Source: Dehalococcoidia bacterium (GTDB lineage Bacteria > Chloroflexota > Dehalococcoidia > Lucifugimonadales > UBA1123). From it: a stretch of DNA of 64,000 nucleotides. The notes below the pieces were generated by a model. It did not search any database. It was not told the DNA's origin and saw only the letters and a list, made by a program, of their open reading frames with translations. Below are positions 1-45,984 of the stretch, piece by piece. The translations under genes were made by a program, and so were the position numbers. The DNA is taken from positions 831,076-895,075 of the forward strand of contig OZ220693.1 of the NCBI GenBank assembly GCA_965116415.1, in the 5' to 3' direction. The stretch's first letter is position 1; the number at the start of each line of letters is the position of its first letter.

Positions 1-812
1 TGGTTGGTGATGCTGGACTCTCCCCTGACGACTGTTCCGTCATTGAAGCGTGCAGACAGCTGAAGGTCGGCAGATGTAGAGGGCAAGACCCCTCCCCTGA
101 CCGCGAGCACGCGGCTGGACTCGACGAGTGCCTGGTCGAAGCTCTCGGTCACATTGGTCATCGCGACTATGAAGAGGTTGCCGAAGCTGTGGCCCTTGAG
201 ACCGCTGCCCTCGTCGAAGCGGTACTGGAACAAGTCTGCCAACAGAGTCTCGTCCTCAGAGAGGGCCACCAGGCAGTTGCGGAAGTCGCCGGGAGGCAGA
301 ACGCCGAGTTCCCGTCGCAGAATTCCTGAACTCCCTCCATCGTCAGCGACGGTGATAATGGCGGTGAGGTTGTCCGTGTGAAGCCTGAGGCCGCGCAGCA
401 GCACCGACTGGCCGGTACCGCCTCCAATCGCGACCACCTTGGGGCCGCGTCCCCTGGACCACCTGTTGTAGACGGTGTCGGCCACAGCATCAATTGACTT
501 CGAACGCATGAAGAGAGGACTGAGCGCCCTATAGTAGCCGTACATGGACAGCAGTATCGCACCGCCTCCGACGCCCAGCAGCAAGAACCCCTCAAAGTAC
601 CAGGGCAGAAAATCAGGAAAGCCAACAGAGAAGAACTTCCTGATCAGGTAGGCCAAGCCTATAGAGCAGAACGCGACACCGATCGCGCCAATCAAAGCCC
701 AACGCTTCAGGCCAACTCCGGGGTGCAGCAGGCGTAGAAACCGCTGTACGCGAGAGACAGACTCCCCATTCGAACCGGAACCTGGGGGAGAGCCATTTCT
801 GCGATTCGACAT
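1..812 (-). CDS. YvcK/CofD-family protein (UPF0052, gluconeogenesis-factor-like). Only the N-terminal part is present; the 3' end lies outside the window.
   Basis: My own translation of the minus strand from the ATG at 812-810, which overlaps the gatB stop as TGATG. It reads MSNRRNGSPPG..., has one hydrophobic segment, then KVVAIGGGTGQSVLLRGL ... ITVADDGGSSG ... GHSFGNLF. The frame stays open to position 1. It is absent from the ORF track because it runs off the edge. Confidence 0.7.
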   Translation of the reverse strand, partial: MSNRRNGSPPGSGSNGESVSRVQRFLRLLHPGVGLKRWALIGAIGVAFCSIGLAYLIRKFFSVGFPDFLPWYFEGFLLLGVGGGAILLSMYGYYRALSPLFMRSKSIDAVADTVYNRWSRGRGPKVVAIGGGTGQSVLLRGLRLHTDNLTAIITVADDGGSSGILRRELGVLPPGDFRNCLVALSEDETLLADLFQYRFDEGSGLKGHSFGNLFIVAMTNVTESFDQALVESSRVLAVRGGVLPSTSADLQLSARFNDGTVVRGESSITN

Positions 813-2284
813 CAGCGCATCGCTTCCAGTTGCTCGTGAACCATCTGGCTGGCCATCCGGGGATTAGCCTTACCGCGTGTGGCCTTCATCACCTGCCCAA
901 CCAGGAAGCCCATGGCCTGGTGTCTGCCAGCAAGGTAGTCGGCTACAGGGTCCGGGTTGGCTGATATGGCTTCCTGCACCGCGGTTAGAACAGCGTCAGT
1001 GTCGGATATCTGTACCAGCCCCTCAGTCTCTGCAATCTGACGAGGCGGTTGACCCGTCTCGAACATCTTCTCGAAGACAGTCTTGGCCATTGTCGAACTC
1101 AGCGTCGAGTCGTCGACCATGGCCTGCAACTCAGCGACCTGTGAAGGTTTGATGCCGACCTCCGAGATGTCCTTGCCGGATTGGTTCAACAGCCGTGACA
1201 TCTCACCCAGCATCCAGTTGCTGACAGCCTTGGCGAACTGTTCGGAGCCCGCCGGCTCCCTTGGAGCCTCGTCAAGAACTTCCTCGAAGTAGTCGGCCGT
1301 CGACTTGGTCGTGGTCAATAGCTCGGCGTCGTATTCAGGCAGGCCAAGTTCGGAGACGAAGCGGCTCTTTCGAGCATGGGGTAGTTCTGGGAGTGAGGAC
1401 TCAATGTCATCGACCCACTCTGGGGAAATCCTGAGGGGTGGAAGGTCAGGTTCAGGGAAGTAGCGATAGTCGGAGGCGCCTTCCTTCACGCGTTGGGAGA
1501 CGGTTACAGAGTCTTCCTCTTCCCATCCGCGTGTCTCCTGGACGATTCGTCCGCCCGACTCAACGACTTTAACCTGACGCTCCGCCTCGTACTCAAGCGC
1601 ACGGTACACGGAGCGGAAGCTGTTCATGTTTTTGATTTCGACCTTGGTGCCGTACTCCTCCTGGCCGACGGGGCGAACGCTGATGTTGGCGTCACACCTG
1701 AAGTTGCCCTCCTCCATGTTGGCGCTGCTGGTGCCAATGTACTGGAGAATCGAGTGCAGCTGCATCAGGTATGCACGAGCCTCTTCCGCGCTTCTGAGAT
1801 CGGGTTCACCGACGATCTCCATGAGCGGGACCCCAGCCCTGTTGACGTCGAGCAGCGAGTAGCCTTCGCCGAATCCCTCGGTGCGATGCATGAGCTTCGC
1901 TACATCCTCCTCAAGGTGGACGCGCGTTACGCCAACGGTGCGTTGGACGCCGTCTACCTCTATCGGCATTGTCCCATTGGAGGCGATTGGCAGATCGTAC
2001 TGCGAAATCTGGTAGCCCTTCATGAGGTCTGGATAGGGATAGTTCTTACGGTCGAACTTGGTGTAGGAAGCTATGTCGCAGCCGAGGGCGAGTCCAGTGC
2101 GAATCACGTGCTCGACAGCCTTGCGGTTAATCACCGGCAGCACACCGGGCATTCCCATGCAGACGGGGCACACCACGGTGTTGGGTGCGGCATCCTGGTA
2201 TTCGGAGCTGCACGCACAGAACATCTTGCTTTCGGTAGATAGCTGGGCGTGGACTTCCAGCCCAATGACCACTTCAAAATCCAT
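812..2284 (-). CDS. gatB: Asp-tRNA(Asn)/Glu-tRNA(Gln) amidotransferase subunit B
   Basis: 490-aa ORF. The N-terminus MDFEVVIGLEVHAQL, the Cys cluster (FCACSS ... CPVCMGMPG) and the C-terminal GFLVGQVMK tail are typical of GatB. Confidence 0.95.
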   Translation of the reverse strand: MDFEVVIGLEVHAQLSTESKMFCACSSEYQDAAPNTVVCPVCMGMPGVLPVINRKAVEHVIRTGLALGCDIASYTKFDRKNYPYPDLMKGYQISQYDLPIASNGTMPIEVDGVQRTVGVTRVHLEEDVAKLMHRTEGFGEGYSLLDVNRAGVPLMEIVGEPDLRSAEEARAYLMQLHSILQYIGTSSANMEEGNFRCDANISVRPVGQEEYGTKVEIKNMNSFRSVYRALEYEAERQVKVVESGGRIVQETRGWEEEDSVTVSQRVKEGASDYRYFPEPDLPPLRISPEWVDDIESSLPELPHARKSRFVSELGLPEYDAELLTTTKSTADYFEEVLDEAPREPAGSEQFAKAVSNWMLGEMSRLLNQSGKDISEVGIKPSQVAELQAMVDDSTLSSTMAKTVFEKMFETGQPPRQIAETEGLVQISDTDAVLTAVQEAISANPDPVADYLAGRHQAMGFLVGQVMKATRGKANPRMASQMVHEQLEAMR

Positions 2285-2374
2285 AACTGTTGACGTCCAA
2301 GAAGAACCTAGTCGGCGAGGAAAAACACAACGTAAAGTATATGGAACAGAAGCGAGGGTTACAACGCCGCGAGG

Positions 2375-3025
2375 CTAGTCACTCAGGTCGGACTCGGACC
2401 AGGCTTCGCGTCCAATCAAGGGCACGAACCGACAGGCTCCCAGAGAGCGAGTGACCACGCCGTCCATGGTCCTTACTGCCTTGATGAGGCTCTGTTCGCG
2501 CAAGTTGCCGACGGGGATGACGAGCCTGCCACCAATTTCCAGCTGCAGCAGAAGGTTTCTGGGAATCCTCGGCGCCGCCGCTGCCACGACAATGGCGTCA
2601 AAAGGCGCATCGCCGGGACTCCCCAGTGCGACACCTGCCTCCTCAACGCTGATGTTCGTGTACCCCAATCGTGTCAGCAACATCCTGGCCGAGTCGGCAA
2701 GCTCCGGGACTCGTTCGACTGTAACCACCTCGCGAGCGAGTTCGCCAAGGATTGCGGCCTGGTACCCGCTGCCGGTGCCTATCTCAAGCACCCGGTCGAA
2801 TCTCTTGAGTTCCATTTCCTGCAGCATGATCGCGACGATCGTCGGCTGTGAGATCGTCTGTCCCGCTGGGATACTGAGGGCGATGTCTTCGTATGCGACA
2901 TGCCGGTCGGCCTGGCGCACGAAACGCTCTCTCGGCACGGCGGCGATGGCGTCGAGCACCCGCTTATCGGAGATTTGCCCCGAGAGCTTTCGGAGCAGTC
3001 TATCCCTTGCCCGTTCGACAGGCAT
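2375..3025 (-). CDS. pcm: protein-L-isoaspartate O-methyltransferase
   Basis: 216 aa. Contains GQTISQPTIVA and the SAM-binding VLEIGTGSGYQAAIL motif characteristic of Pcm. Confidence 0.9.
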   Translation of the reverse strand: MPVERARDRLLRKLSGQISDKRVLDAIAAVPRERFVRQADRHVAYEDIALSIPAGQTISQPTIVAIMLQEMELKRFDRVLEIGTGSGYQAAILGELAREVVTVERVPELADSARMLLTRLGYTNISVEEAGVALGSPGDAPFDAIVVAAAAPRIPRNLLLQLEIGGRLVIPVGNLREQSLIKAVRTMDGVVTRSLGACRFVPLIGREAWSESDLSD

Positions 3026-3174
3026 GAGGCTATGGGTTTCCTTCCCAGAATTCTGCGTTCAGCGTGTCATTACCTTACCAAAACCGGTGGCGCCTGAGTC
3101 TCGGCTTTGCTGGGCGAACTCACGTGTCGCTATAGGGTAAACTAAACTGCAATACGAGCTAACCAGACGGGAGG

Positions 3175-3831
3175 ATGTTGTTGCCAAGATACTATCCGGC
3201 CTTCATCGACGTTCGAGAGCGAAACTGCGTCGTGATTGGAGGCGGCGCGCTGGGGGAGGAAAAGGTCGTGAAGCTGCTGGAGTGCGACGCGAAGGTTATA
3301 GTGATCGCCCCTGAGATTACTCCCGTGGTTGAGGGGTTAGCCTCCGACGGTACGCTCGAATGGATCAGGCGCGACTATCAACCCGGCGACCTCGCGCGGG
3401 CTTTCATAGCCATAGCGTCAACAGGTGACGATGAAACGGATCGTCGGATCTACGCCGAGGCTGAAGAGCGCAACGTGCTGCTCAACGTCGTGGATGTAAC
3501 ACATCTGTGTACATTCATCGCCCCCTCAGTCGCACGGCGCGGGGAAGTCACCGTTGCAACCTCCACAGGCGGGGCAAGTCCAGCGCTGGCCAGGACCTTT
3601 CGAGAGAAGCTGGAGTCCAGCAGGATCCTGGAGTACGCGGATCTGGCCCCGATACTGGCTCGAGGGCGGGCTGAACTCAGGAAGCGCGGCCTGAGGGTCG
3701 CGCCCGACCACTGGCAGAGTTGCATCAGTGAAGAGTTGCTCGACACCGTGCAGAGTGGTGATGAGACGACTGCTTATCGGATGCTCGAAGAAGGCCTGCT
3801 AGCGGGGGCAGAGCCGATTTCACCCGCATGA
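3175..3831 (+). CDS. precorrin-2 dehydrogenase / sirohydrochlorin ferrochelatase (CysG N-terminal-domain type, SirC-like)
   Basis: 218 aa. Has the Rossmann motif VVIGGGALGEEKV near the N-terminus. It is the first gene of the hemC/cobA-hemD/hemB operon, and its stop overlaps the hemC start (ATGA). Confidence 0.8.
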   Translation: MLLPRYYPAFIDVRERNCVVIGGGALGEEKVVKLLECDAKVIVIAPEITPVVEGLASDGTLEWIRRDYQPGDLARAFIAIASTGDDETDRRIYAEAEERNVLLNVVDVTHLCTFIAPSVARRGEVTVATSTGGASPALARTFREKLESSRILEYADLAPILARGRAELRKRGLRVAPDHWQSCISEELLDTVQSGDETTAYRMLEEGLLAGAEPISPA

Positions 3832-4754
3832 CAGACCGCGTCTTCAGAGTAGGTACGCGGGGGAGTGCGCTCGCAAGGGTGCAGACTGATGAGGTCGTGC
3901 AGGCCCTCAGGTCGGCGTGGCCGGATGTCAACATCGAAGTCGTTCCGATCACTCCAGACGGCGACCGCCGAAAGTCGGCCCCTCTCCAGTCTCTGGGCAG
4001 GGGCACGTTCGTTAAAGGGCTAGAGGAGCCGCTGCTGAGGGGCGAGATCGATTTGGCGGTACATTCGGCCAAAGATATGGCTTCGGAAGTTCCAACAGGG
4101 CTGGCAATTGTCGCCTACCCCGAGCGCAAGGACCCGAGAGACGTGATCGTCAACAGGTGGGATGCGGGATTTGAAGAGCTGCCTCAGGGATCGAGTTTAG
4201 GCACTAGCAGTCCCCGACGGGCTGGTCAGCTTCTGGCAGCGCGACCTGATCTCAGGTTCATTCCGGTACGTGGTAACGTCGATACGAGAATCGGTAAAGT
4301 CGGGGAAGACGCGTATGACGGTGTCGTACTCGCGGCTGCCGGGCTTGAACGGCTCGGATGGCAGGACAGGGTGTCGAGCTTCCTCGATCCCGAGTTGTGT
4401 ATTCCGGATGCGGGACAGGGTGCTTTAGCCGTTGAGGCCCGTGTGGAGGACTCAGAGGTGGCCGAGCTGTTGGCGGCGATAAATCACACGTCGACGTGGT
4501 CTACGGTAACGGCTGAGCGGGCATTCGTGGAAGCCACAGGCGGGGGATGTCGCGTACCGGTTGCAGCCTACGCGACCGAGTCGCATGGCACTCTCAGCAT
4601 TCGGTCGATGGCGTGTCTTCCTGACGGCTCCCAGATGTTTCGTTCGTCGGTTGAACTGCCGGGCGACGACCCTGTTGGGGCAGGCCAAGCGGCAGCTCGG
4701 GCTCTGGAAGAGACCGGAGCGAAGGAGATAATGTACGCCGCACGCATCGTCTGA
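3828..4754 (+). CDS. hemC: hydroxymethylbilane synthase (porphobilinogen deaminase)
   Basis: 308 aa. Contains RVGTRGSALARVQT ... AVHSAKDM ... LGTSSPRR, typical HemC motifs. Confidence 0.93.
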   Translation: MTDRVFRVGTRGSALARVQTDEVVQALRSAWPDVNIEVVPITPDGDRRKSAPLQSLGRGTFVKGLEEPLLRGEIDLAVHSAKDMASEVPTGLAIVAYPERKDPRDVIVNRWDAGFEELPQGSSLGTSSPRRAGQLLAARPDLRFIPVRGNVDTRIGKVGEDAYDGVVLAAAGLERLGWQDRVSSFLDPELCIPDAGQGALAVEARVEDSEVAELLAAINHTSTWSTVTAERAFVEATGGGCRVPVAAYATESHGTLSIRSMACLPDGSQMFRSSVELPGDDPVGAGQAAARALEETGAKEIMYAARIV

Positions 4755-4782
4755 GGGCCGCTATACAAGCTGACGATTTGTT

Positions 4783-6324
4783 GTGCTGCCTGGAGTGGGC
4801 GTCTTGAGCAACGTCGGGAAAGTCTATCTCGTGGGAGCAGGTCCCGGGGACCCCGGACTGATAACGGTCAAGGGCCTGAGGCTTCTCGAGTCGGCAGACG
4901 TGATCGTTCATGATCGGCTGATCGACGAACGGCTGCTTGCAATGGCTGGGCCTGACGCAGAGCTCGTCGATGTGGGCAAAGTACCGGGACAAGCCGGGCG
5001 AAAGCAGTCCGACATCAATAGGCGCCTGGTAAGCGAGGCCCGGGTTGGCAAGACCGTTATCCGGCTGAAGGGCGGCGACCCGTTCGTTTTTGGAAGGGGG
5101 GGCGAGGAGGCCGAGGCGCTGCATGACGCCGGAGTCCCCTTCGAGGTGGTGCCGGGGGTAACATCGGCCGTTGCAGTGCCCGCTTACGCCGGGATTCCAC
5201 TCACTCATCGCGACCACTCTTCGTCATTCACAGTCGTGACAGGCAGCACAGCCAAGTCGAATGAAGCAGGTTCTCCTGACTGGGACTTGCTTGCCAAGAT
5301 CCCCGGCACGCTCGTGGTCCTTATGGGTTGGAGCACACTCCCAGCTATTACTACCAAGCTAATCGAGAGTGGCAAGTCAGGTTCTACTCCTGCGGCAGTG
5401 ATTAGCCAGGGGACCGAGACCCAACAGAAGACAGTCATCGGCCCCCTTGGCTCTATCGCCGACATTGCGAGGGCGGAGGGTCTGAGGTCACCTGCAGTCG
5501 TCGTAATCGGCGACGTTGTTAATCTGGGTGACAGACTCAACTGGTTCGAGGCGCTGCCGCTACTTGGCAAACGAGTGCTGGTGACTCGCACCCGGAATCA
5601 AGCGGGCCTTCTCTCACAGGGCCTTCTGGATATTGGCGCGACTCCAATTGAGATCCCTACGATTGAAGTGCGCCCTCCGAAGGACTACGCCTCGTTGGAC
5701 TCGGCCTGCGCAGAGCTTTCTGTTTTCGACTGGGTTGTGTTTGCCTCGTCCAACGCAGTGCACGCTGTCTTCGAACGTCTCAGGGCATCTGGGCGGGACT
5801 CAAGAGCATTTCATGGCGTCAGGGTCGCTGCCGTTGGGCCGGCAACTGGAAAGGTCCTCGAAGGATATGGAATTGTGGCTGATCTAGTTCCCTCGACGGC
5901 AACGTCGACCGGTCTGGCCAACGACCTGATCAAAAGTGGTGTCCACGGCAGTCGGATACTACTTCCAAGGGCTGACATTGCGACGCGAGAACTCCCCGAT
6001 ATGCTAATTGAACAGGGAGCGGAGGCAGTGGAAGTCACAGCATATCGGACTGTGATGCCGGTGGAGTCAAGAGAGAGGGCTATTGCGGCCCTCAAGGCTG
6101 GTGTTGACGTGGCAACCTTCACAAGCTCGTCCACGGTGAGAAACCTGCTGAGGCTGCTTGACGACGGCGCTGAATCGCTCGCCGAAACGAAGATCGCCTG
6201 CATTGGGCCTATAACGGCCGCAACCGCTGGAAGGCTGGGTTTGAAAGTTGATATAGTTGCGAATACACCAACCATTGGTGGGCTGACGACGGCCCTTGTC
6301 GAATTCTTCACCTCTGGGAAGTAG
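4783..6324 (+). CDS. bifunctional uroporphyrinogen-III C-methyltransferase / uroporphyrinogen-III synthase
   Basis: 513 aa. The N-terminal half has the SUMT motifs GKVYLVGAGPGDPGLITVKG and LKGGDPFVFGRGGEE. The C-terminal half (about 250 aa) is HemD-like. The true start is uncertain; a TTG at about 4804 is possible. Confidence 0.9.
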   Translation: MLPGVGVLSNVGKVYLVGAGPGDPGLITVKGLRLLESADVIVHDRLIDERLLAMAGPDAELVDVGKVPGQAGRKQSDINRRLVSEARVGKTVIRLKGGDPFVFGRGGEEAEALHDAGVPFEVVPGVTSAVAVPAYAGIPLTHRDHSSSFTVVTGSTAKSNEAGSPDWDLLAKIPGTLVVLMGWSTLPAITTKLIESGKSGSTPAAVISQGTETQQKTVIGPLGSIADIARAEGLRSPAVVVIGDVVNLGDRLNWFEALPLLGKRVLVTRTRNQAGLLSQGLLDIGATPIEIPTIEVRPPKDYASLDSACAELSVFDWVVFASSNAVHAVFERLRASGRDSRAFHGVRVAAVGPATGKVLEGYGIVADLVPSTATSTGLANDLIKSGVHGSRILLPRADIATRELPDMLIEQGAEAVEVTAYRTVMPVESRERAIAALKAGVDVATFTSSSTVRNLLRLLDDGAESLAETKIACIGPITAATAGRLGLKVDIVANTPTIGGLTTALVEFFTSGK

Positions 6325-27417: not shown

Positions 27418-27536
27418 ACCCTGGCAGTGGCCTATTTTCCCACACCCTTGCAAGTGCAGTATCGTCGGCGCTGAAGCGTTTCACTTCCGTGTTCGGGATG
27501 GGAACGGGTGGGTCCGCCTCGCTCAAACCACCAAGG
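27418..27536 (-). rRNA. rrf: 5S ribosomal RNA (stand-alone copy)
   Basis: The reverse complement reads CCTTGGTGGTTTGAGCGAGGCGGACCCACCCGTTCCCATCCCGAACACGGAAGTGAAACGCTTCAGCGCCGACGATACTGCACTTGCAAGGGTGTGGGAAAATAGGCCACTGCCAGGGT. It contains the universal CCCGTTCCCATCCCGAACACGGAAGT core, and the ends pair as helix I. No 23S or 16S sequence is present anywhere in the window. Confidence 0.9.
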
Positions 27537-40480: not shown

Positions 40481-41347
40481 TTACACGCGGACGAACTTCG
40501 AGACCCGCTCGCCCTGGCCGATCTCGGTGACGTAGATGCTGCCGTGGGAGTCGACGCAGATTCCGTGACCGCCGATGAGGGTCCCCATTCCAGCGCCCTC
40601 GTTGCCACGCCACCGGGTGATCAGCTCGCCGTCCATGGTCCAGATGCTGACGCCGTTGCCGCCGCCCTGCTCGATGACGTAGATGATGTCATCGTGTATC
40701 CAGAGGTCCCCGGGGGCGACCATGTCGGTCCACTCTTCGATGAAATTGCCCTCGTCATCGAACAACTGCATCCTGTTGTTTTCGCGGTCGGCGATGTAGA
40801 CCCTGCTGTTCTTGTCCACCCAGACGTTGTGGAGGAGCGCAAACTCGCCCGGACCGGTGCCCTGCTTGCCCCAGGACTTGACCAGCTCACCATCGGCGGT
40901 GAACTTGTGGACGCGGTGACCTCCGTAGCCGTCAGAAACAAACATGTGGCCGTCCGGCGCTATGGCGAGTCCAGACGGCATGTTGAAGGGCATGCCCTGA
41001 AACGACGGCGAGGGCGCGAGCTTTTCGCCGAGAGTGCGGAGCGCCTCACCCCCGGGTGTGTACTCGGTGGCGATGTGGTAGTCGCGGTCGACCAGCCAGA
41101 CGTTGTCGTTCGGCGCGATGTAGATGCCGTGCGGGTTGGCGGAGAAAGTGCCCTCACCCCAGGAGCTGATGAAGTTTCCGTCCGTGTCCCAGATGGTCAA
41201 CGGATGGAGTCCCCGGCTGAAAATGTAGACCTCGTCCCTGGAGTTCACTGCGCCGTCTGAAGCTGCGCCAAACTCCCAGTACTTGGGCATGTTTGGCCAC
41301 TCGGGCACGCGTTCGTATTGAAAGTCTCCTGATCCTACGACTGCCAT
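40481..41347 (-). CDS. NHL-repeat six-bladed beta-propeller protein
   Basis: 288 aa. Contains repeated ...P.G[IV]A.D..G..[YF]V.D..N.R[IV]..F... units. Confidence 0.75.
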   Translation of the reverse strand: MAVVGSGDFQYERVPEWPNMPKYWEFGAASDGAVNSRDEVYIFSRGLHPLTIWDTDGNFISSWGEGTFSANPHGIYIAPNDNVWLVDRDYHIATEYTPGGEALRTLGEKLAPSPSFQGMPFNMPSGLAIAPDGHMFVSDGYGGHRVHKFTADGELVKSWGKQGTGPGEFALLHNVWVDKNSRVYIADRENNRMQLFDDEGNFIEEWTDMVAPGDLWIHDDIIYVIEQGGGNGVSIWTMDGELITRWRGNEGAGMGTLIGGHGICVDSHGSIYVTEIGQGERVSKFVRV

Positions 41348-41389
41348 TTCGATTCACCTCACTTGTCGAATAGCTTAGGAAGCAGGGCG

Positions 41390-41418
41390 ATTGTATTTTG
41401 CACCGGGTGCATGGTCAA
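41390..41418 (-). promoter_or_regulatory. sigma70-type promoter for the NHL-repeat gene
   Basis: On the minus strand: TTGACC (41418-41413), a 17-nt spacer, TACAAT (41395-41390). It lies about 45 nt upstream of the ATG. Confidence 0.5.
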
Positions 41419-41606
41419 CCTGAGTTGCGGGTACGGGGTCCTGAACTGAAACTGATGAACAGGATTCGACCAAAGTCAAGCAATTTCGGAAAATTCTCAA
41501 GGGTGTTATATATTTAACTTGACAACGAGACTCACAACACAGGCTGCTTCTCACTCATTTGGGAGAATCCGCGTTAGCCGCTAGTGGCTGGCGGACGAAT
41601 CAGCAA

Positions 41607-41828
41607 TCAGATATGAGAAAACTGCGCTGACAGCCAGCCGCACTCCTCGCTGAGGGACCCAAGACGGCGTTGAATCTCTTCGAGGTCCTTAGCTATGCTG
41701 ACCAGTTTGGGGTCAATCTGAGGAGCCTGGGGATCGCGTACTGGCACCGGCTCAAGAAGCTCACGTACTTCTGCCACCTTTCTAGCGGCCTCGTTGTATC
41801 GCTGTTCCAGAACTGCGAATCTCTCCAT
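41607..41828 (-). CDS. hypothetical 73-aa helical/coiled-coil protein
   Basis: The internal ATG at 41828 is preceded by AAGGGAG. The sequence is MERFAVLEQRYNEAARKVAEVRELLE... It is the last gene of a three-gene small-ORF operon. I recognise no family. Confidence 0.45.
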   Translation of the reverse strand: MERFAVLEQRYNEAARKVAEVRELLEPVPVRDPQAPQIDPKLVSIAKDLEEIQRRLGSLSEECGWLSAQFSHI

Positions 41829-41874
41829 GGGTACTCCCTTGACCGAGAATCTTGCCCTGCTGAGTAACACACTA

Positions 41875-42084
41875 TCAGATGCGGTAGTCCACAAGCCAAG
41901 TTGTCAGGGTCTCGATTCGCTGTGGCTCCTGCTCGATAATCAGTCCGTAGGCGCAGTCTAGGCAGAGCTGTCTGCTAGCTGTACCTTCCAGTCTCCGATC
42001 TAGGTGCAGGTCTTCCCTGCACTCAGTACGGATGTGGTAGACCGTGCCTCCAGCAGTGTGCCAAGGGGCGGCGACCGTAGCCAT
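41875..42084 (-). CDS. hypothetical 69-aa Cys/His-containing protein
   Basis: Its start overlaps the stop of the upstream Pmp3-like gene (TAATG). It contains YHIRTEC ... CLDC. I recognise no family. Confidence 0.45.
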   Translation of the reverse strand: MATVAAPWHTAGGTVYHIRTECREDLHLDRRLEGTASRQLCLDCAYGLIIEQEPQRIETLTTWLVDYRI

Positions 42085-42284
42085 TAGTTCTGCCCCCTGT
42101 TAATCATCCCCGCCATTCTCTCTGAGCGCTGGTTTGCCTTGTGCTCATTCACAACCAGCATGGCATGAATGATCCCAGGCACCCAGAGCAGAAGGGTCAG
42201 GCCGACATTCAGAAGGGCTGAAAAGGGTCGTCCTGTACATAGGACAGCGACCGGCGGTAGTACGATTGCCAGCAAATACAGCAT
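42084..42284 (-). CDS. YqaE/Pmp3-family small membrane protein
   Basis: 66 aa from the ATG at 42284 (GGAGG upstream). MLYLLAIVLPPVAVLCTGRPFSALLNVGLTLLLWVPGIIHAMLVV matches the Pmp3 pattern (LPP..V......N..LT...W.PG.IHA). The ORF-track N-terminal extension is rejected. Confidence 0.7.
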   Translation of the reverse strand: MLYLLAIVLPPVAVLCTGRPFSALLNVGLTLLLWVPGIIHAMLVVNEHKANQRSERMAGMINRGQN

Positions 42285-42290
42285 CTTGGA

Positions 42291-42372
42291 GCCTCCTCGT
42301 GGCGTGGATTGGCTGTACTCGCCACAAGTCCCACCGCTCCGTGTATACCGCGAGGAGGCACGAAAACGTGCC
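42291..42372 (-). promoter_or_regulatory. possible SD-sequestering leader structure upstream of the Pmp3-like operon
   Basis: On the mRNA (minus) strand, GCCUCCUCG (42359-42351) is perfectly complementary to the SD region CGAGGAGGC (42299-42291). An alternative hairpin GGCACG-UUUU-CGUGCC (42372-42357) overlaps the anti-SD by 3 nt. Confidence 0.3.
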
Positions 42373-42516
42373 TTTCCACGCCTGCATACACGCATGGAGT
42401 TGTGGGCTGTGGCGAGCCATGCCCAAACCTTGCCAGTGGCGGGGCTTGTTGTCAAGCTGAGGCGGCCTTAAAACTCACCTAACGCGATCCTGTGCTAAAC
42501 TTGTCAGCAGCACATT

Positions 42517-42553
42517 GAAAATACAAAGACCCCAGTGTTGGCGCACTGGGGTC
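42517..42553 (-). terminator. intrinsic terminator (minus strand)
   Basis: On the minus strand: GACCCCAGUG-CGCCAA-CACUGGGGUC (10-bp stem), followed by UUUGUAUUUUC. Confidence 0.6.
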
Positions 42554-42611
42554 AATCCGTCGGACAACGTGGGCTGTCGTGTCCTGTTGCGTAAGTATAG
42601 CACAGATTTTT

Positions 42612-42648
42612 GAGGCCCTCGTCGGACAGTGACGAGGGCCTCTTTTAT
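42612..42648 (+). terminator. intrinsic terminator (plus strand) abutting the tRNA-like gene
   Basis: Perfect 12-bp stem GAGGCCCTCGTC / GACGAGGGCCTC with loop GGACAGT, followed by TTTTAT. The tRNA-like element starts at the very next base. Confidence 0.6.
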
Positions 42649-42742
42649 GCGGAGCGTAACCCCAGCAGGTGCTGGGCGCGGCTTGAGAAGCCGCTGGATG
42701 CTGCGAGAACAGGATTGGGGTTCGATACCCCTACGCTCCGCT
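42649..42742 (+). tRNA. non-canonical tRNA-like gene (Sec/allo-tRNA-type architecture, anticodon GAG, no encoded CCA)
   Basis: 94 nt. Acceptor GCGGAGCGTA pairs with TACGCTCCGC (9-10 bp). The T arm is GGGG-TTCGATA-CCCC (4 bp). The D arm is CCCAGC-AGGT-GCTGGG (6 bp, 4-nt loop). The anticodon arm is GCGGC-TTGAGAA-GCCGC. The variable arm is about 22 nt and the discriminator is T. A canonical 7/5 cloverleaf cannot be drawn. Confidence 0.55.
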
Positions 42743-42818
42743 CTAGTTCAATTGTAAGCTAGGGCTTGACAAGAAACAACCTCATGGTGCGCCTAGAACA
42801 TACCCCAGGAGCTAACCC

Positions 42819-42983
42819 ATGCACCCACTTGTGATAGGCTTAATTGCAGTCTTGGTCATAGGACTATCCCTATTAGGCCTTGCCGTTGCATCACAATTCG
42901 GATACGGACTCATAGGAGCACTTGCAGGACTAGTCGCGGGAGCTGTCATTGCACTAGTTGTCATGGCATACGCCGGAAGGTAG
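42819..42983 (+). CDS. hypothetical 54-aa hydrophobic (two-TM, Gly-zipper-like) peptide
   Basis: Not in the ORF track because it is under 60 aa. AGGAG lies 8 nt upstream of the ATG at 42819. The sequence is MHPLVIGLIAVLVIGLSLLGLAVASQFGYGLIGALAGLVAGAVIALVVMAYAGR*. Codon usage is AT-richer than in neighbouring genes. Confidence 0.35.
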   Translation: MHPLVIGLIAVLVIGLSLLGLAVASQFGYGLIGALAGLVAGAVIALVVMAYAGR

Positions 42984-44015
42984 CTGACACGCCAATGTGC
43001 GGGTGAACTAGAGATCGCTCCTGCCTAGAACATCACCAACTGAGCGCCGTCCGGCGGCTCGTGACCGATCAGCACCTGGTACTTGAGACGCTTGTCCAAC
43101 ATAGCCACAACCAGATTAGCCATCTGGTCGATGGTATCCAGGGGTCGCCAGTTGTGCCGATGCTCGAACTCGGACACGTACCGGGCTAGATGCTTGGCGC
43201 TGAACCAGTGGTAGATGCCCTGATACCCACGCTTCATCTGCGCCCAGAACGATTCCATGCCGTTCGTGCTTGCCATACCCCTGACGTACTCACCAGCACT
43301 GTGATTGACAGTCTCGTGCTCCCGAGCAATCCCGCTGTAGCCTCCCCAGCTGTCCGTGTAGACCACAGTATCCTCATAGGTCCTGGACTCTACAAAACGA
43401 TGCAGTGTTCGCTGAGACGCATCGGGTACGGGAGCCGCTGACACCTGATGGCTGTATCGGTCCCTGATGCCGACTACAGCAATGTGACCTTGGACTCCCC
43501 GTCCGATTCCGCCTCCCCGTTCTCGTCGCCTTCGGGCGTGCATGGAACGGGCTCGCCCACCAACATAAGTCTCATCTGCTTCGACAGGTCCACGAAACAT
43601 CGGGTCGTCGGACCGCATTGCCTCCCGTATCCTGTGCTGCATGAACCATGCGCTCTTTTGAGTGATGCCCAGGTCACGGTGTAGCTTCATTGACGACACA
43701 CCCTTGAGGTTCGTCATCATCTGGTAGATCGCTATGGCCCACTTCTGGTAGCCGATCTTCGAGGACTCCATGACAGTGCCGAGCTTCGCGGAGAAATACT
43801 TCCGACAATCACCGCACCAGTATGGCATGGGCTTGGAGTTCTCGACCGGAGACGTGACTGTGCTCCCACACCTGGGGCAAGCCCTTCCGTCCGGCCAGCG
43901 GATGCTCTCGAACCATGCCCGTGCTTGCTCTTCGTCCGGGAACATGTCAAACAACTGGACGAGCGATATGCCGTCCCTCTCTTCTCTGCCTGCCACTGCC
44001 CTGGCTCCTCTTCTA
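42984..44015 (-). mobile_element. IS1595-family insertion sequence; ends not resolved
   Basis: Defined only by the transposase gene. I could not find convincing terminal inverted repeats or target duplications by eye, so the boundaries are approximate. Confidence 0.45.
43025..43996 (-). CDS. IS1595-family transposase (N-terminal zinc-ribbon plus ISXO2-like DDE domain)
   Basis: 323 aa. Contains FPDEEQARAWFESIRWPDGRACPRCGS ... YWCGDCRKYFSAKLGTVMESSKIGYQKW ... SSMKLHRDLGITQKSAWFMQHRIREAM and D...D...E spacing in the C-terminal half. Confidence 0.85.
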   Translation of the reverse strand: MAGREERDGISLVQLFDMFPDEEQARAWFESIRWPDGRACPRCGSTVTSPVENSKPMPYWCGDCRKYFSAKLGTVMESSKIGYQKWAIAIYQMMTNLKGVSSMKLHRDLGITQKSAWFMQHRIREAMRSDDPMFRGPVEADETYVGGRARSMHARRRRERGGGIGRGVQGHIAVVGIRDRYSHQVSAAPVPDASQRTLHRFVESRTYEDTVVYTDSWGGYSGIAREHETVNHSAGEYVRGMASTNGMESFWAQMKRGYQGIYHWFSAKHLARYVSEFEHRHNWRPLDTIDQMANLVVAMLDKRLKYQVLIGHEPPDGAQLVMF

Positions 44016-44291
44016 CTACTCTTCTTTACCGTCTAACTCGAATCGTAACCTCACAGGATTACGTCGCTGTACTAAGACAGTCTGCATTGCTTGCAGCAAC
44101 TCGTGTGTCTCACTGTACGCTTCCCCATTTGTCCAATTCCTGTTGCAGGATGGGCACATTTTGATCGGCTTGGTGCATTCATTCAGAGGCCTTACAACCT
44201 CGGCCTTACAATCATCCCAACCACACCGATACCGCACTGCCTGGATGTCATCCAGCCCAAACACGATCTTGCTTTCCTTCATAACGCTCAT
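44016..44291 (-). CDS. hypothetical 91-aa protein with a CxxC-type pair (C..DC ... CPSC)
   Basis: Internal ATG at 44291 (MSVMKESKIVFGLDDIQAVRYRCGWDDCKAEVV...CPSCNRNW...). It stops 20 nt from the transposase start. The region is AT-rich. I recognise no family. Confidence 0.4.
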   Translation of the reverse strand: MSVMKESKIVFGLDDIQAVRYRCGWDDCKAEVVRPLNECTKPIKMCPSCNRNWTNGEAYSETHELLQAMQTVLVQRRNPVRLRFELDGKEE

Positions 44292-44484
44292 CGTGGGTCC
44301 CCTCGGCTGGACGCCTTGGGAAACCCAGCCTCCTTGGTTGGATTTGTCTATGCCCCAATTGTACCTGAGACAAGGCACTTTGTCAAGTTATCTACGTAAC
44401 TTTGGAAGGACGACACTTGACGTTGTGCTATGCTCTGGCAACTAAAAAGACCCTCTGCAAACGAGGGTCAGAACAGGACTTGAT

Positions 44485-44757
44485 ATGCACGAACTACTGA
44501 AGCAATTGGCTATCAAATGGCAGGAGGCCGCTGGCAATCTGGAGGGTTATACATCCCACAACGAGTTTGGGAGAACCGTTCCATTGCTATTGAGGTTGAG
44601 CCTTACAGCCGAGGGCGAGTTACATCTAGAGGTCATAGCTGAGTCTGATGTTTTTGGAACTCACCATGCTGGTGAACTACTCAACGCTTCGTCAGATATG
44701 GAGTCCCCTGCTATACCGACAGCTTCTGTGACGATTCCGCCAGAGACTCTTTTCTAA
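44485..44757 (+). CDS. hypothetical 90-aa protein
   Basis: ORF with an ATG start in the AT-rich islet, divergent from 44016..44291. I recognise no motif. Confidence 0.35.
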   Translation: MHELLKQLAIKWQEAAGNLEGYTSHNEFGRTVPLLLRLSLTAEGELHLEVIAESDVFGTHHAGELLNASSDMESPAIPTASVTIPPETLF

Positions 44758-44929
44758 CAGGCAGAAGTCCAGATCGACGACGCACTTCGGTTATAGATAG
44801 AACTTCGTCTTTGATGGATAGCTCTTTTTGCACCCCAGCCCCCTTTTCACCTTGTCCTACTACCCATTCTCTGCCCTCTCACGTCGGTTTGTCAACTTTT
44901 GTATATAAGTTCCATTCTCAAATAAAGTA

Positions 44930-44956
44930 TTGACAAGTGCCCAAAACAGGTATATT
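44930..44956 (+). promoter_or_regulatory. strong sigma70-type promoter driving the structured RNA
   Basis: TTGACA (44930-44935) and TATATT (44951-44956; spacer 15-17 nt depending on register), preceded by an A/T-rich UP-like stretch AAATAAAGTA. Confidence 0.6.
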
Positions 44957-44965
44957 CTTAATTTT

Positions 44966-45171
44966 GCCCCAAGTGGTTGAGGCTAACGATTCAGCGGAGC
45001 GGTTACAGCAGGCGGGACGCCGCAGGTTGCGCTCTCAGAGTCGGAAGGTCCGGCCCCCGAACGAGCAGGCAGTGCGTTGCAGGCTCACGGGAGTTGGATC
45101 CTGGAGGCTGGTAGCGTCGGTGACGCATCGCAGGCGCGGACGCTGGTCTCGAGGGCGAGGTCACTTGGGGC
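44966..45171 (+). ncRNA. candidate structured small RNA of about 205 nt, class unknown (closed-rod, 6S-like overall shape)
   Basis: The 5' GCCCCAAGTGG (44966-44976) pairs with the 3' TCACTTGGGGC (45161-45171). Several internal GC-rich hairpins are present. The element follows the promoter and is followed by TTTGTATTT. There is no credible ORF, and it converges on hpt, so it is not a 5' leader. Confidence 0.5.
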
Positions 45172-45222
45172 GTTTGTATTTCCCCTCGTTTCCCTTCCCG
45201 CGCCGATGGTGCGCGTTTGCGT

Positions 45223-45756
45223 TTATGGCCCATCGCTCCGGGCGATATCCAGTGCGCGCACGTCCCTCAGGTTCCTGTAAGCGCCGTTGTAGTCCAGGCC
45301 GCAACCGACAACGAAGACATCGGGGATCTCGAAACCTACGTACGCGACCTCCAGGACGTGGGTCCTCTTTGAGGGCTTGTCCAACAGAGAGCACACCTTG
45401 ACTGACTTTGCTCCCAGGTCGATCACGTGTCGGGAGAGAGCTGTCAGCGTCGCTCCTGTGTCCACTATGTCCTCCACGAGGAGGACATGCCGACCCTCGA
45501 GGGACTGCTGAGAGGGAAGCCATTCAACTGTAATCTTGCCCGGCTCCGTTCCGCTGTAGCTCTGGACGCGGGCTGTGGCAACGTCGACGGAGTGTGGAAA
45601 CGCCCGGATCAGATCGACGAGAAAACACATCGCGCCATCCATCACGCCGACAAATATCGGGGCGGTGTCGCCGTAGTCCCCGGAAATCCTGCCCGCGAGC
45701 TTGGGGATTGCGCGGGCAATTTCGGCTTCCGAGATAACGATGTCTCCCAGGGGCAT
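45223..45756 (-). CDS. hpt: hypoxanthine phosphoribosyltransferase
   Basis: Contains the PRTase motif VLLVEDIVDTGATLT and C-terminal VVGCGLDYNGAYRNL. I prefer the ATG at 45756 (MPLGDIVISEAEI...) to the GTG at 45792. Confidence 0.92.
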   Translation of the reverse strand: MPLGDIVISEAEIARAIPKLAGRISGDYGDTAPIFVGVMDGAMCFLVDLIRAFPHSVDVATARVQSYSGTEPGKITVEWLPSQQSLEGRHVLLVEDIVDTGATLTALSRHVIDLGAKSVKVCSLLDKPSKRTHVLEVAYVGFEIPDVFVVGCGLDYNGAYRNLRDVRALDIARSDGP

Positions 45757-45984
45757 TGTCGAATCCTTGGCGGTGTCGAGGTCCGGTGTCACAGATGCAG
45801 GGTGCTCGCGAAATTCATGGCACCATGATACTGCGTTTGGTCTGTTCCAATCATCCGCAATCCACCTGGAAATTACCGGATGAACTGGTTTCCGAATTCA
45901 TAGTCTCTGTTGCGGGCGAACGCTATATGTTAATCTCGGACGGTCGCTGACAACCCCCTACTAGGAAACTGGACTAAGTCATCG

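Follow-up and report, generated by a model that had tools for sequence, protein, structure and literature searches.

The locus and its transcript

The stretch of DNA analysed here, termed the window, comprises 64,000 nucleotides (nt) of contig OZ220693.1 from a Dehalococcoidia bacterium, and the element in question lies in it between an islet of extra DNA and hpt, the gene of hypoxanthine phosphoribosyltransferase. It is a stand-alone gene (44966-45176, plus strand) for a very abundant, stable, structured non-coding RNA, and we hold with high confidence that this RNA is real and expressed and that it belongs to a new RNA family. Rfam 15 does not contain this family, which is spread through Dehalococcoidia (Chloroflexota), as a rule with its gene just downstream of hpt; some genomes have additional paralogues. 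A sequence-only reading of the same DNA had proposed a promoter-driven transcript at this place, closed by the pairing of its own ends. The features on which the account depends are given below, where P1 is the helix formed by the two ends of the RNA, P2 the short helix that follows it, and H1 to H3 are the hairpins enclosed.

44908-44929, plus strand: possible UP element, A/T-rich; most homologues have A-rich sequence (aaaaagg or the like) ahead of TTGACA
44930-44935, plus strand: -35 hexamer TTGACA, from a promoter scan; (T)TGACA stands at equal distance in nearly all of at least 100 homologues
44953-44958, plus strand: -10 hexamer TATTCT after a 17-nt spacer, from the promoter scan; overlaps TATATT at 44951-44956
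44966-45176, plus strand: the RNA proper, ~205-211 nt, with G44966 as inferred start and the U-rich tail as its end, delimited by metatranscriptome contig and adapter ends
44966-44978, plus strand: 5' strand of P1 (GCCCCAAGUGGUU), from folds; pairs with 45159-45171
44979-44980, plus strand: 5' half (GA) of a tandem purine mismatch between P1 and P2; GA or AA opposite a near-invariant GA in 90 distinct end sequences
44987-45043, plus strand: hairpin H1, from the consensus fold of six 205-207-nt homologues; apex CAGC-AG-GCGG-GACG-CCGC-AG-GUUG
45047-45100, plus strand: hairpin H2, from the consensus fold; apex GAGC-AG-GCAG-UGCG-UUGC-AG-GCUC, which repeats the H1 module
45104-45150, plus strand: hairpin H3, from the consensus fold (columns 139-186)
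45157-45158, plus strand: 3' half (GA) of the tandem purine mismatch; first position G in 75/91 and A in 16/91, second position A in 90/91
45159-45171, plus strand: 3' strand of P1 (GGUCACUUGGGGC), from folds; its consensus GAGGUUACUYGGGRC is the most conserved sequence of the family
45172-45181, plus strand: U-rich tail (GUUUGUAUUU); cDNA (complementary DNA) ends fall at 45170-45176, and a U-rich tail comes right after P1 in nearly all homologues
45223-45792, minus strand: hpt (Pfam PF00156), convergent neighbour outside the RNA

Expression was read from assembled contigs of public sponge metatranscriptome runs (X5, X14, X15 and X17). X5 yielded one contig, of word depth 796, that begins exactly at 44966, and contigs spanning 44972-45176 at word depths of ~400-5000 came from X15 and X17. 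Illumina adapters sit flush with 44972 and with 45173/45176 in X15/X17, and with 45170 in X14. Flush adapters on either side imply that entire molecules were read, which makes the RNA ~205-211 nt long, with its end in GUUUG just past the helix. The flanks (islet, hpt and transporter gene) gave no contig from the RNA runs, save one low-depth 31-nt partial X14 match in hpt; with the contigs confined to 44966-45176, the independent transcript of ~205 nt that had been predicted is what these libraries contain. We assign it to the plus strand from the promoter, the U tail and the many G-U pairs, which would be A-C if read on the other strand; promoter and U tail lie on the plus strand in every family member.

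The hexamer TTGACA, with A/T-rich DNA before it that may serve as an UP element, is present where the sequence-only reading had placed it. The same reading took TATATT (44951-44956) for the -10 box, and here we correct it, since the 17-nt spacer kept throughout the family selects TATTCT instead. Family members carry TAnnnT 17 nt past TTGACA and 6-7 nt ahead of the first base of P1, and a sigma-70-type promoter with this spacing sets the start of the window transcript at G44966, the first base of the P1 helix. The GC content is 0.66 over 44966-45171 compared with ~0.44-0.50 just upstream, in line with the GC-rich segment described earlier, and the U-rich run reported after it is seen at 45172-45181; P1 and this run together would form the terminator, with P1 itself causing termination. 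An open reading frame (ORF), 44937-45401, crosses the gene, and its GTG start at 44937 falls between the two promoter hexamers and ahead of the first base of the RNA, 44966. Homologues measure 100, 101, 104, 205, 206 and 207 nt, with 1-nt indels between relatives. Since the start codon thus lies outside the transcript, in the promoter spacer, and the frame is broken by these indels, the ORF is rejected as a product, just as it had been judged to be without coding character.

The minimum free energy of 44966-45171 on the plus strand is -106.9 kcal/mol vs. -89.2 +/- 4.3 kcal/mol for dinucleotide shuffles (z = -4.09, 0/200 as good); the minus strand reaches only -85.3 kcal/mol, the plus strand being better by 21 kcal/mol, and a 100-nt relative has a shuffle z of -7.2. 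The perfect pairing of 44966-44976 with 45161-45171 that had been pointed out is real and, once G-U pairs are counted, grows to 13 base pairs (bp), 44966-44978 with 45159-45171. In the 206-nt window form this P1 and three hairpins make up a four-way junction. The two GCAGGCG...-type motifs on which small hairpins had been drawn (45008-45023 and 45133-45144) fall within H1 and H3, and the long imperfect arm at 45047-45101 is H2 of the consensus fold. Compensatory changes in H2 are found at columns 92:125, 100:119 and 106:113, while changes in H3 are mostly one-sided (G-U), with one compensatory pair. The apex module of H1 is also the tip of the 100-nt rod forms. What did not survive is the comparison with a closed, 6S-like rod: the window RNA is branched, the family is without a conserved central bubble, and no 6S model scores.

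Homologues, shared architecture and covariation

A syntenic relative from a Dehalococcoidia metagenome-assembled genome (MAG), here L001, was matched with its promoter included at an nhmmer E-value of 1.5e-8, when nhmmer and blastn were run against loci fetched via hpt. A motif scan over one genome per GTDB species found 14 Dehalococcoidia loci of ~100, 205 and 259 nt, and a look downstream of hpt that used no sequence pattern found 26 further members among 43 Dehalococcoidia hpt loci. Diverged versions downstream of hpt carry compensatory changes in the terminal helix (CCCGAGC/ACUCGGG, CUCCAGGUA/UACCUGGGG and CCUCAGGUAAC/GUUACCUGAGG). R1, a covariance model made from the 111-nt subfamily, matches solely loci titled Chloroflexota, Chloroflexi, Chloroflexia or Dehalococcoidia, and none of ~110 hpt loci from other phyla. 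R1 does not match the 206-nt window form at E-values up to 1; the window RNA is tied to the family via L001, which is linked to the window by its nhmmer match and synteny and to R1 at an E-value of 9e-6.

The scan for the 3' strand followed by a U tail gave at least 120 stretches, at least 76 of them with a complementary 5' arm, and at least 74 of the latter are members, almost all from Dehalococcoidia; the non-members are L347, whose arm is misplaced, and L327, a chance match. After removal of duplicates the family holds at least 111 distinct sequences of 70-259 nt, nearly all from Dehalococcoidia/Chloroflexota MAGs, and by their record titles the matched Dehalococcoidia genomes include lineages associated with sponges and the ocean. 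At least 100 homologues keep the promoter, the helix and the U tail. An exact 23-mer of the element found no match in GTDB genomes, a metagenome scan with the 5' motif gave two true matches only, both of one Tara-type sequence, and a scan of viral contigs gave a chance match only and no sign of a phage link.

All members have in common the promoter TTGACA-N17-TAnnnT, which ends 6-7 nt before P1, and a P1 of consensus GUCCCRAGURRYY / GAGGUUACUYGGGRC, after which the shared frame continues with the tandem purine mismatch (GA/AA vs. near-invariant GA) and a short P2, and closes with the U-rich tail. Over P1 and P2, 94% of 1440 cells are paired compared with 28-50% when the partner is slid, a statistic that for P1 is inflated by the way in which 5' arms were detected (see below), and 0/500 shuffles reach the observed values. 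Two-sided change occurs in 11/16 of these pairs; pair 6:35, for example, is A-U in 57, G-C in 27 and G-U in 6 sequences. The placement of P1 is validated by its fixed distance to the independently conserved promoter. In the 155-nt subfamily, whose inner helices were not used in detection, 93.4% of cells are paired vs. 27-41% when slid, with 11 compensatory pairs, and 0/500 shuffles attain either the observed pairing or the covariation score. The six RNAs of 205-207 nt share P1, P2, H1, H2 and H3 with some compensatory changes. Covariation in relatives is therefore found both for the terminal helix and for the inner helices of the 155-nt subfamily.

The interior that P1 encloses varies. Members of 100-160 nt are irregular rods, and a module recurs in which a 3-4-bp helix with a tetraloop stands on an internal loop of purines facing purines. 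Its sequence in the window clade is C-AG-GCGG-loop-CCGC-AG-G, found at the tips of H1 and H2. In other clades it runs from (A)AGUA or AAGGUA through GGY-GNRA-RCC to GAAA(A), which has the look of a loop-E or bulged-G motif. The 100-111-nt forms hold one copy of the module. The median interior is 71% purine (G 41%, A 30%, C 17%, U 12%) and cannot be fully Watson-Crick paired. In the 155-nt subfamily, local GNRA hairpins compete with a long-range 3-bp helix, and both fit the data.

The alignment of the 155-nt subfamily also contains CCRAGU and ACUUGG twice each (columns 4-9, 24-29, 49-54 and 154-159). An alternative re-pairing could put a 5' hairpin and a long-range helix in place of P1 and the inner hairpin, and these alternative helices, too, are ~96-98% paired. 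The duplicated motifs either are left over from an internal duplication or reflect an alternative fold that is real.

Paralogues and genomic surroundings

The convergent hpt gene lies beyond the RNA in almost all loci of the motif scan and of the survey downstream of hpt, and among the 3'-motif matches listed it lies 6-225 nt past the 3' end of the RNA in 46 of 76 loci. The window conforms to this arrangement, with hpt convergent on the minus strand (45223-45792) as had been described, and the accompanying claim that the RNA is not a 5' leader holds for the window. It is incomplete for the family as a whole: in a few relatives the next gene runs in the direction of the RNA, though there too the RNA ends at its own helix and U tail. 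At two loci, L226 and L229, RNA and hpt share a strand. The persistent link may be a gene order passed down by descent, as is seen for other stable RNA genes.

Copies away from hpt are of the 138-nt and 140-147-nt types, and their neighbours vary. Diverged second paralogues that share promoter and P1 include those at L303, L338, L339, L377, L283, L311 and L392, among others; paralogues thus have P1 in common and differ in their interiors. Two different contigs were matched in four MAGs, and the pairs L305/L338 and L210/L303 each combine an hpt-linked copy with an unlinked one. The copies at L338 and L339 stand beside MazF/PemK-like ORFs, the former also beside an excisionase-like ORF. At L130 (2115-2855) the 259-nt RNA gene and its promoter form a tandem duplicate, with the copies 697 nt apart and three differences between them. 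In the short-form loci L140 (1150-1700), L081/L001 and L089, a small same-strand ORF beginning MTTKR follows the RNA after 15-60 nt; it is apparently truncated in L001 (8 codons).

Dehalococcoides has the 3' end of a family member (AGGCUACCUGGGGC then GGCUAUUUU) convergent to hpt. Among four Logan contigs whose hpt is 99% identical to that of D. mccartyi 195 (L396-L399), three end at one point, which is 37 nt beyond the stop codon of hpt and 30 nt inside the 3' strand of the RNA, and the fourth ends 22 nt beyond; this shared stop may reflect a coverage jump or a repeat shared between paralogues. No family RNA was found downstream of hpt in L002 (OY762456.1), which bears the title Pseudomonadales. 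The hpt of this record has 58% identity to that of the window and is the second-best match among GTDB genomes; the record may have a wrong taxonomic label or a transferred hpt.

The neighbours of the RNA gene in the window are hpt, a major facilitator superfamily transporter, an SMP-30-like protein and an IS1595 transposase. About 3.6 kb (41348-44929) separate the NHL-repeat gene (40481-41347, minus strand) from the RNA promoter, whereas in L098, L135 and L146 the NHL-repeat gene ends just ~190-200 nt upstream of the RNA. The extra DNA holds a Pmp3 proteolipid ORF (42084-42455), a selenocysteine transfer RNA gene (tRNA-Sec, 42650-42740), an IS1595-family transposase (43025-43996) and small ORFs, and looks like an inserted islet beside tRNA-Sec. 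Elsewhere in the window there is a 5S ribosomal RNA (rRNA) gene (27419-27535, minus strand) and no 23S or 16S rRNA match in the 64 kb, so that the 5S gene appears to be unlinked from the large rRNAs.

Class membership, proposed role and significance

A search of the whole window with Rfam 15 found only the 5S rRNA, an L10 leader and three tRNAs including tRNA-Sec, none of them on the RNA, and 44800-45300 gave nothing relevant at E-values up to 10. Nor was anything relevant found in twelve homologous loci at the gathering score, in six distant ones at E-values up to 10, or in a 136-nt slice around a 111-nt member at the same threshold. The earlier statement that the RNA is of unknown class and matches none of 6S, signal recognition particle (SRP), RNase P, transfer-messenger RNA (tmRNA) or riboswitch therefore agrees with Rfam at both the gathering score and E-values up to 10. 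Several candidates could be rejected outright. There is no tmRNA or RNase P RNA match on the element, and the sole tmRNA fragment lies elsewhere, in L008. A riboswitch or 5' leader is rejected by a next gene that is convergent in the window and most loci, by the RNA's own terminator, by an interior of 70-260 nt and by the lack of any riboswitch match. A miniature inverted-repeat transposable element or repetitive extragenic palindromic repeat is rejected likewise, with one copy in the 64-kb window, 1-2 diverged paralogues per genome and a promoter outside the inverted repeat. No description of the family was found in the literature searched. The nearest report is of three abundant small RNAs (sRNAs) without an Rfam family in D. 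mccartyi CBDB1 (PMC12961961, 2026), which could be compared by description only: sRNA1-3 are likewise abundant monocistronic intergenic transcripts with sigma-70-type promoters and no Rfam match, conserved within the species, two of them in the core genome, whereas sRNA1, at 188 nt and with 6S traits, differs from the 111-125-nt forms of the nearest relatives of that species' hpt locus.

Two well-known RNAs deserve comparison at this point. The family could be the missing SRP (4.5S; RF00169) RNA of Dehalococcoidia in a divergent form, with the hairpin tip as a non-canonical Ffh-binding domain, an explanation that we consider unlikely. Rfam SRP models detect no SRP RNA in Dehalococcoides (PMC4779614), and the RefSeq feature types of D. 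mccartyi CBDB1 list RNase P RNA and tmRNA and not SRP RNA (PMC12961961). The hpt-linked family, of which Dehalococcoides has a 3' end beside hpt, is near-universal in Dehalococcoidia hpt loci and very abundant, as SRP RNA is; like the small bacterial SRP RNA it comes in one core-genome copy per genome and, in many members, as a ~100-115-nt single hairpin closed by both ends. In many clades the RNA is a 100-125-nt hairpin laid out at its apex like SRP helix 8, with a GNRA/GNAR tetraloop that caps a 3-bp helix and a purine-rich internal loop below. However, no SRP model scores, and the universal CAGG/AGCA symmetric-loop motif is missing from the family; the helix-8 motif (CAGG, 3-bp helix, GNRA, 3-bp helix, AGCAG) is absent from the window even with one mismatch, its matches in the fetched loci lie outside the RNA genes, and the window apices read CAGG-CGG-GACG-CCG-CAGG. 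The loops of the window clade are UUCG, GACG or UGCG rather than GNRA, the branched 206-259-nt versions and the 71% purine interior are further differences, and the paralogues, the tandem duplicate and the widely differing architectures would be unusual for an SRP RNA. No Ffh or FtsY motif was found in the 64-kb window and no tblastn match in the fetched loci, and if Dehalococcoides truly is without the SRP protein too, as is said (PMC4779614), it would need no SRP RNA. A 6S-type RNA, which would bind sigma-70 RNA polymerase by mimicking an open promoter, has even less to recommend it in our judgment. The resemblance to 6S RNA (RF00013 and relatives) consists of a very abundant stand-alone RNA with paired ends and a strong housekeeping-type promoter, of paralogues comparable to Bacillus 6S-1 and 6S-2, and of large purine-rich internal loops flanked by helices in the 111-nt and 155-nt subfamilies. 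The Rfam 6S model, moreover, evidently misses Dehalococcoides, where the 188-nt CBDB1 sRNA1 with its 6S traits has no Rfam family (PMC12961961). Against this, no 6S model scores on the family, large loops are limited to some subfamilies and a central bubble is not conserved, the 100-nt forms being almost fully paired rods and the window form a four-way junction. Known 6S RNAs measure ~150-200 nt, and many family members, at 100-125 nt, are smaller. Since 111-125-nt forms are found in the loci nearest to that of D. mccartyi hpt, sRNA1 is probably another RNA than the hpt-linked one of this species.

A base-pairing regulator is an improbable alternative, whether it would act on hpt by read-through, as antisense RNA or transcriptional interference, or in trans as an sRNA that pairs its purine tracts with pyrimidine-rich targets. 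The adjacency to hpt has been kept, at 6-225 nt, over deep divergence (hpt identity down to ~40-60%), the U tail after the terminal helix is like that of Hfq-type sRNAs, and long purine-rich stretches of some subfamilies are predicted to be unpaired. Yet the cDNA ends at 45170-45176 and contigs of the RNA runs are essentially absent from hpt, the same-strand arrangement occurs at L226 and L229, many paralogues are distant from hpt, and the most conserved sequence, P1, is double-stranded, with no single-stranded seed common to all clades. It is more improbable still, to a degree that we regard as negligible, that the element has no function as RNA and is a terminator or insulator in cis, a mobile repeat bounded by terminal inverted repeats, or a fold that arose by chance. 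Its location between convergent genes, the inverted repeat that the P1 arms form in the DNA and the several copies in some genomes would fit such an origin; the extreme abundance of the RNA, the dedicated promoter that sets the start at the first base of P1 in at least 100 members and lies outside the inverted repeat, and the covariation of the inner helices would not. Copies within a genome are diverged paralogues rather than near-identical repeats, and the viral-contig scan mentioned above speaks against mobility as well.

The explanation that we tentatively prefer, and would give somewhat less than an even chance, is that of a trans-acting RNA which serves as a scaffold in a ribonucleoprotein (RNP) or as a protein sponge. 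The RNA would act in trans as the RNA part of the RNP, and the near-invariant P1 with its tandem G.A/A.G mismatch would be a common recognition handle, shared by paralogues with different interiors, while P1 and the U tail would both terminate transcription and seal the two ends against exonucleases. The purine-rich modular interior, with one to several copies of the module, would offer a multivalent protein-binding surface, in which the internal loop is AG/AG in the sponge-symbiont clade and elsewhere AGUA or AAGGUA opposite GAAA(A), the latter with a loop-E-like look. The variable number and layout of modules (a 100-nt rod, a 206-nt junction, a 259-nt form) favours such a platform over a single catalytic or ligand-binding fold.

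Two known kinds of RNA are close to this proposal in design. Y RNAs (Ro/Rsr-associated; RF00019, YrlA) also have a helix formed by the ends as their most conserved part, a U-rich 3' tail, a variable interior and several paralogues, and P1 (GUCCCAAGU...ACUUGGGAC) is, judged by hY1 only, superficially like the Ro-binding helix. Membership in the Y RNA/YrlA class is nevertheless rejected: no Rfam model scores, P1 is without the bulged C or asymmetric loop of a Ro-type helix, there is no tRNA-like domain, and no rsr (TROVE) gene is near the window RNA or was recognised among the family neighbours looked at, which were judged from the starts of their sequences and not run against Pfam. The CsrB/RsmZ sponges resemble the family in having size-variable paralogues built of repeated small hairpin modules, a strong promoter and terminator, and purine-rich sequence with GGA in some tetraloops (GGAA). 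They differ in that the family has a long end-closing helix and a hairpin module with an internal loop rather than an ANGGA loop, and a CsrB/Rsm sponge is rejected on the count of GGA, which is not enriched (observed vs. composition-expected 7 vs. 5.6, 7 vs. 7.2 and 5 vs. 4.9).

Some observations weigh against our interpretation as an RNP or sponge RNA and against parts of its support. No partner protein is consistently encoded beside the gene, the neighbours other than hpt being variable, and since GGA is no commoner than composition predicts there is no CsrA-type signature. The internal-loop module differs by clade (AG/AG vs. AGUA/GAAA), so that a single protein contact conserved there would be conjectural. 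P1 could owe its high sequence conservation to promoter-proximal or terminator constraints instead. A 5' arm was detected only with at least 10-11 consecutive pairs, which inflated the pairing statistics of P1 and left the inner helices unaffected. Finally, the metatranscriptome contigs are without strand information, and adapter orientations differ between libraries.

With these points in mind, the RNA belongs to a new family within a known general kind, that of abundant, end-paired, stand-alone bacterial RNAs. More specifically, it might represent a new class of RNP RNA particular to Dehalococcoidia, a suggestion that we make with reserve, in which the P1 handle would recruit a lineage-specific protein and the modular, purine-rich, loop-E-like interiors of several paralogues per genome would diversify binding, as a bacterial counterpart of Y or vault RNAs independent of SRP, 6S and Rsr.

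The Dehalococcoidia also cover lineages of the SAR202 type and the organohalide respirers that bioremediation employs. Hardly anything is known of their non-coding RNAs, and Rfam models detect neither SRP nor 6S RNA in Dehalococcoides (PMC4779614; PMC12961961). The family is a strong candidate to fill this gap, being class-wide, simple in architecture and among these bacteria's most abundant transcripts in sponge metatranscriptomes. The question can be put to the test, given defined ends, a covariance model, at least 100 sequences and cultivable relatives (Dehalococcoides and probably Dehalogenimonas), and either outcome would be informative, whether the RNA turns out to be a non-canonical stand-in for a “universal” RNA or part of a new RNP.

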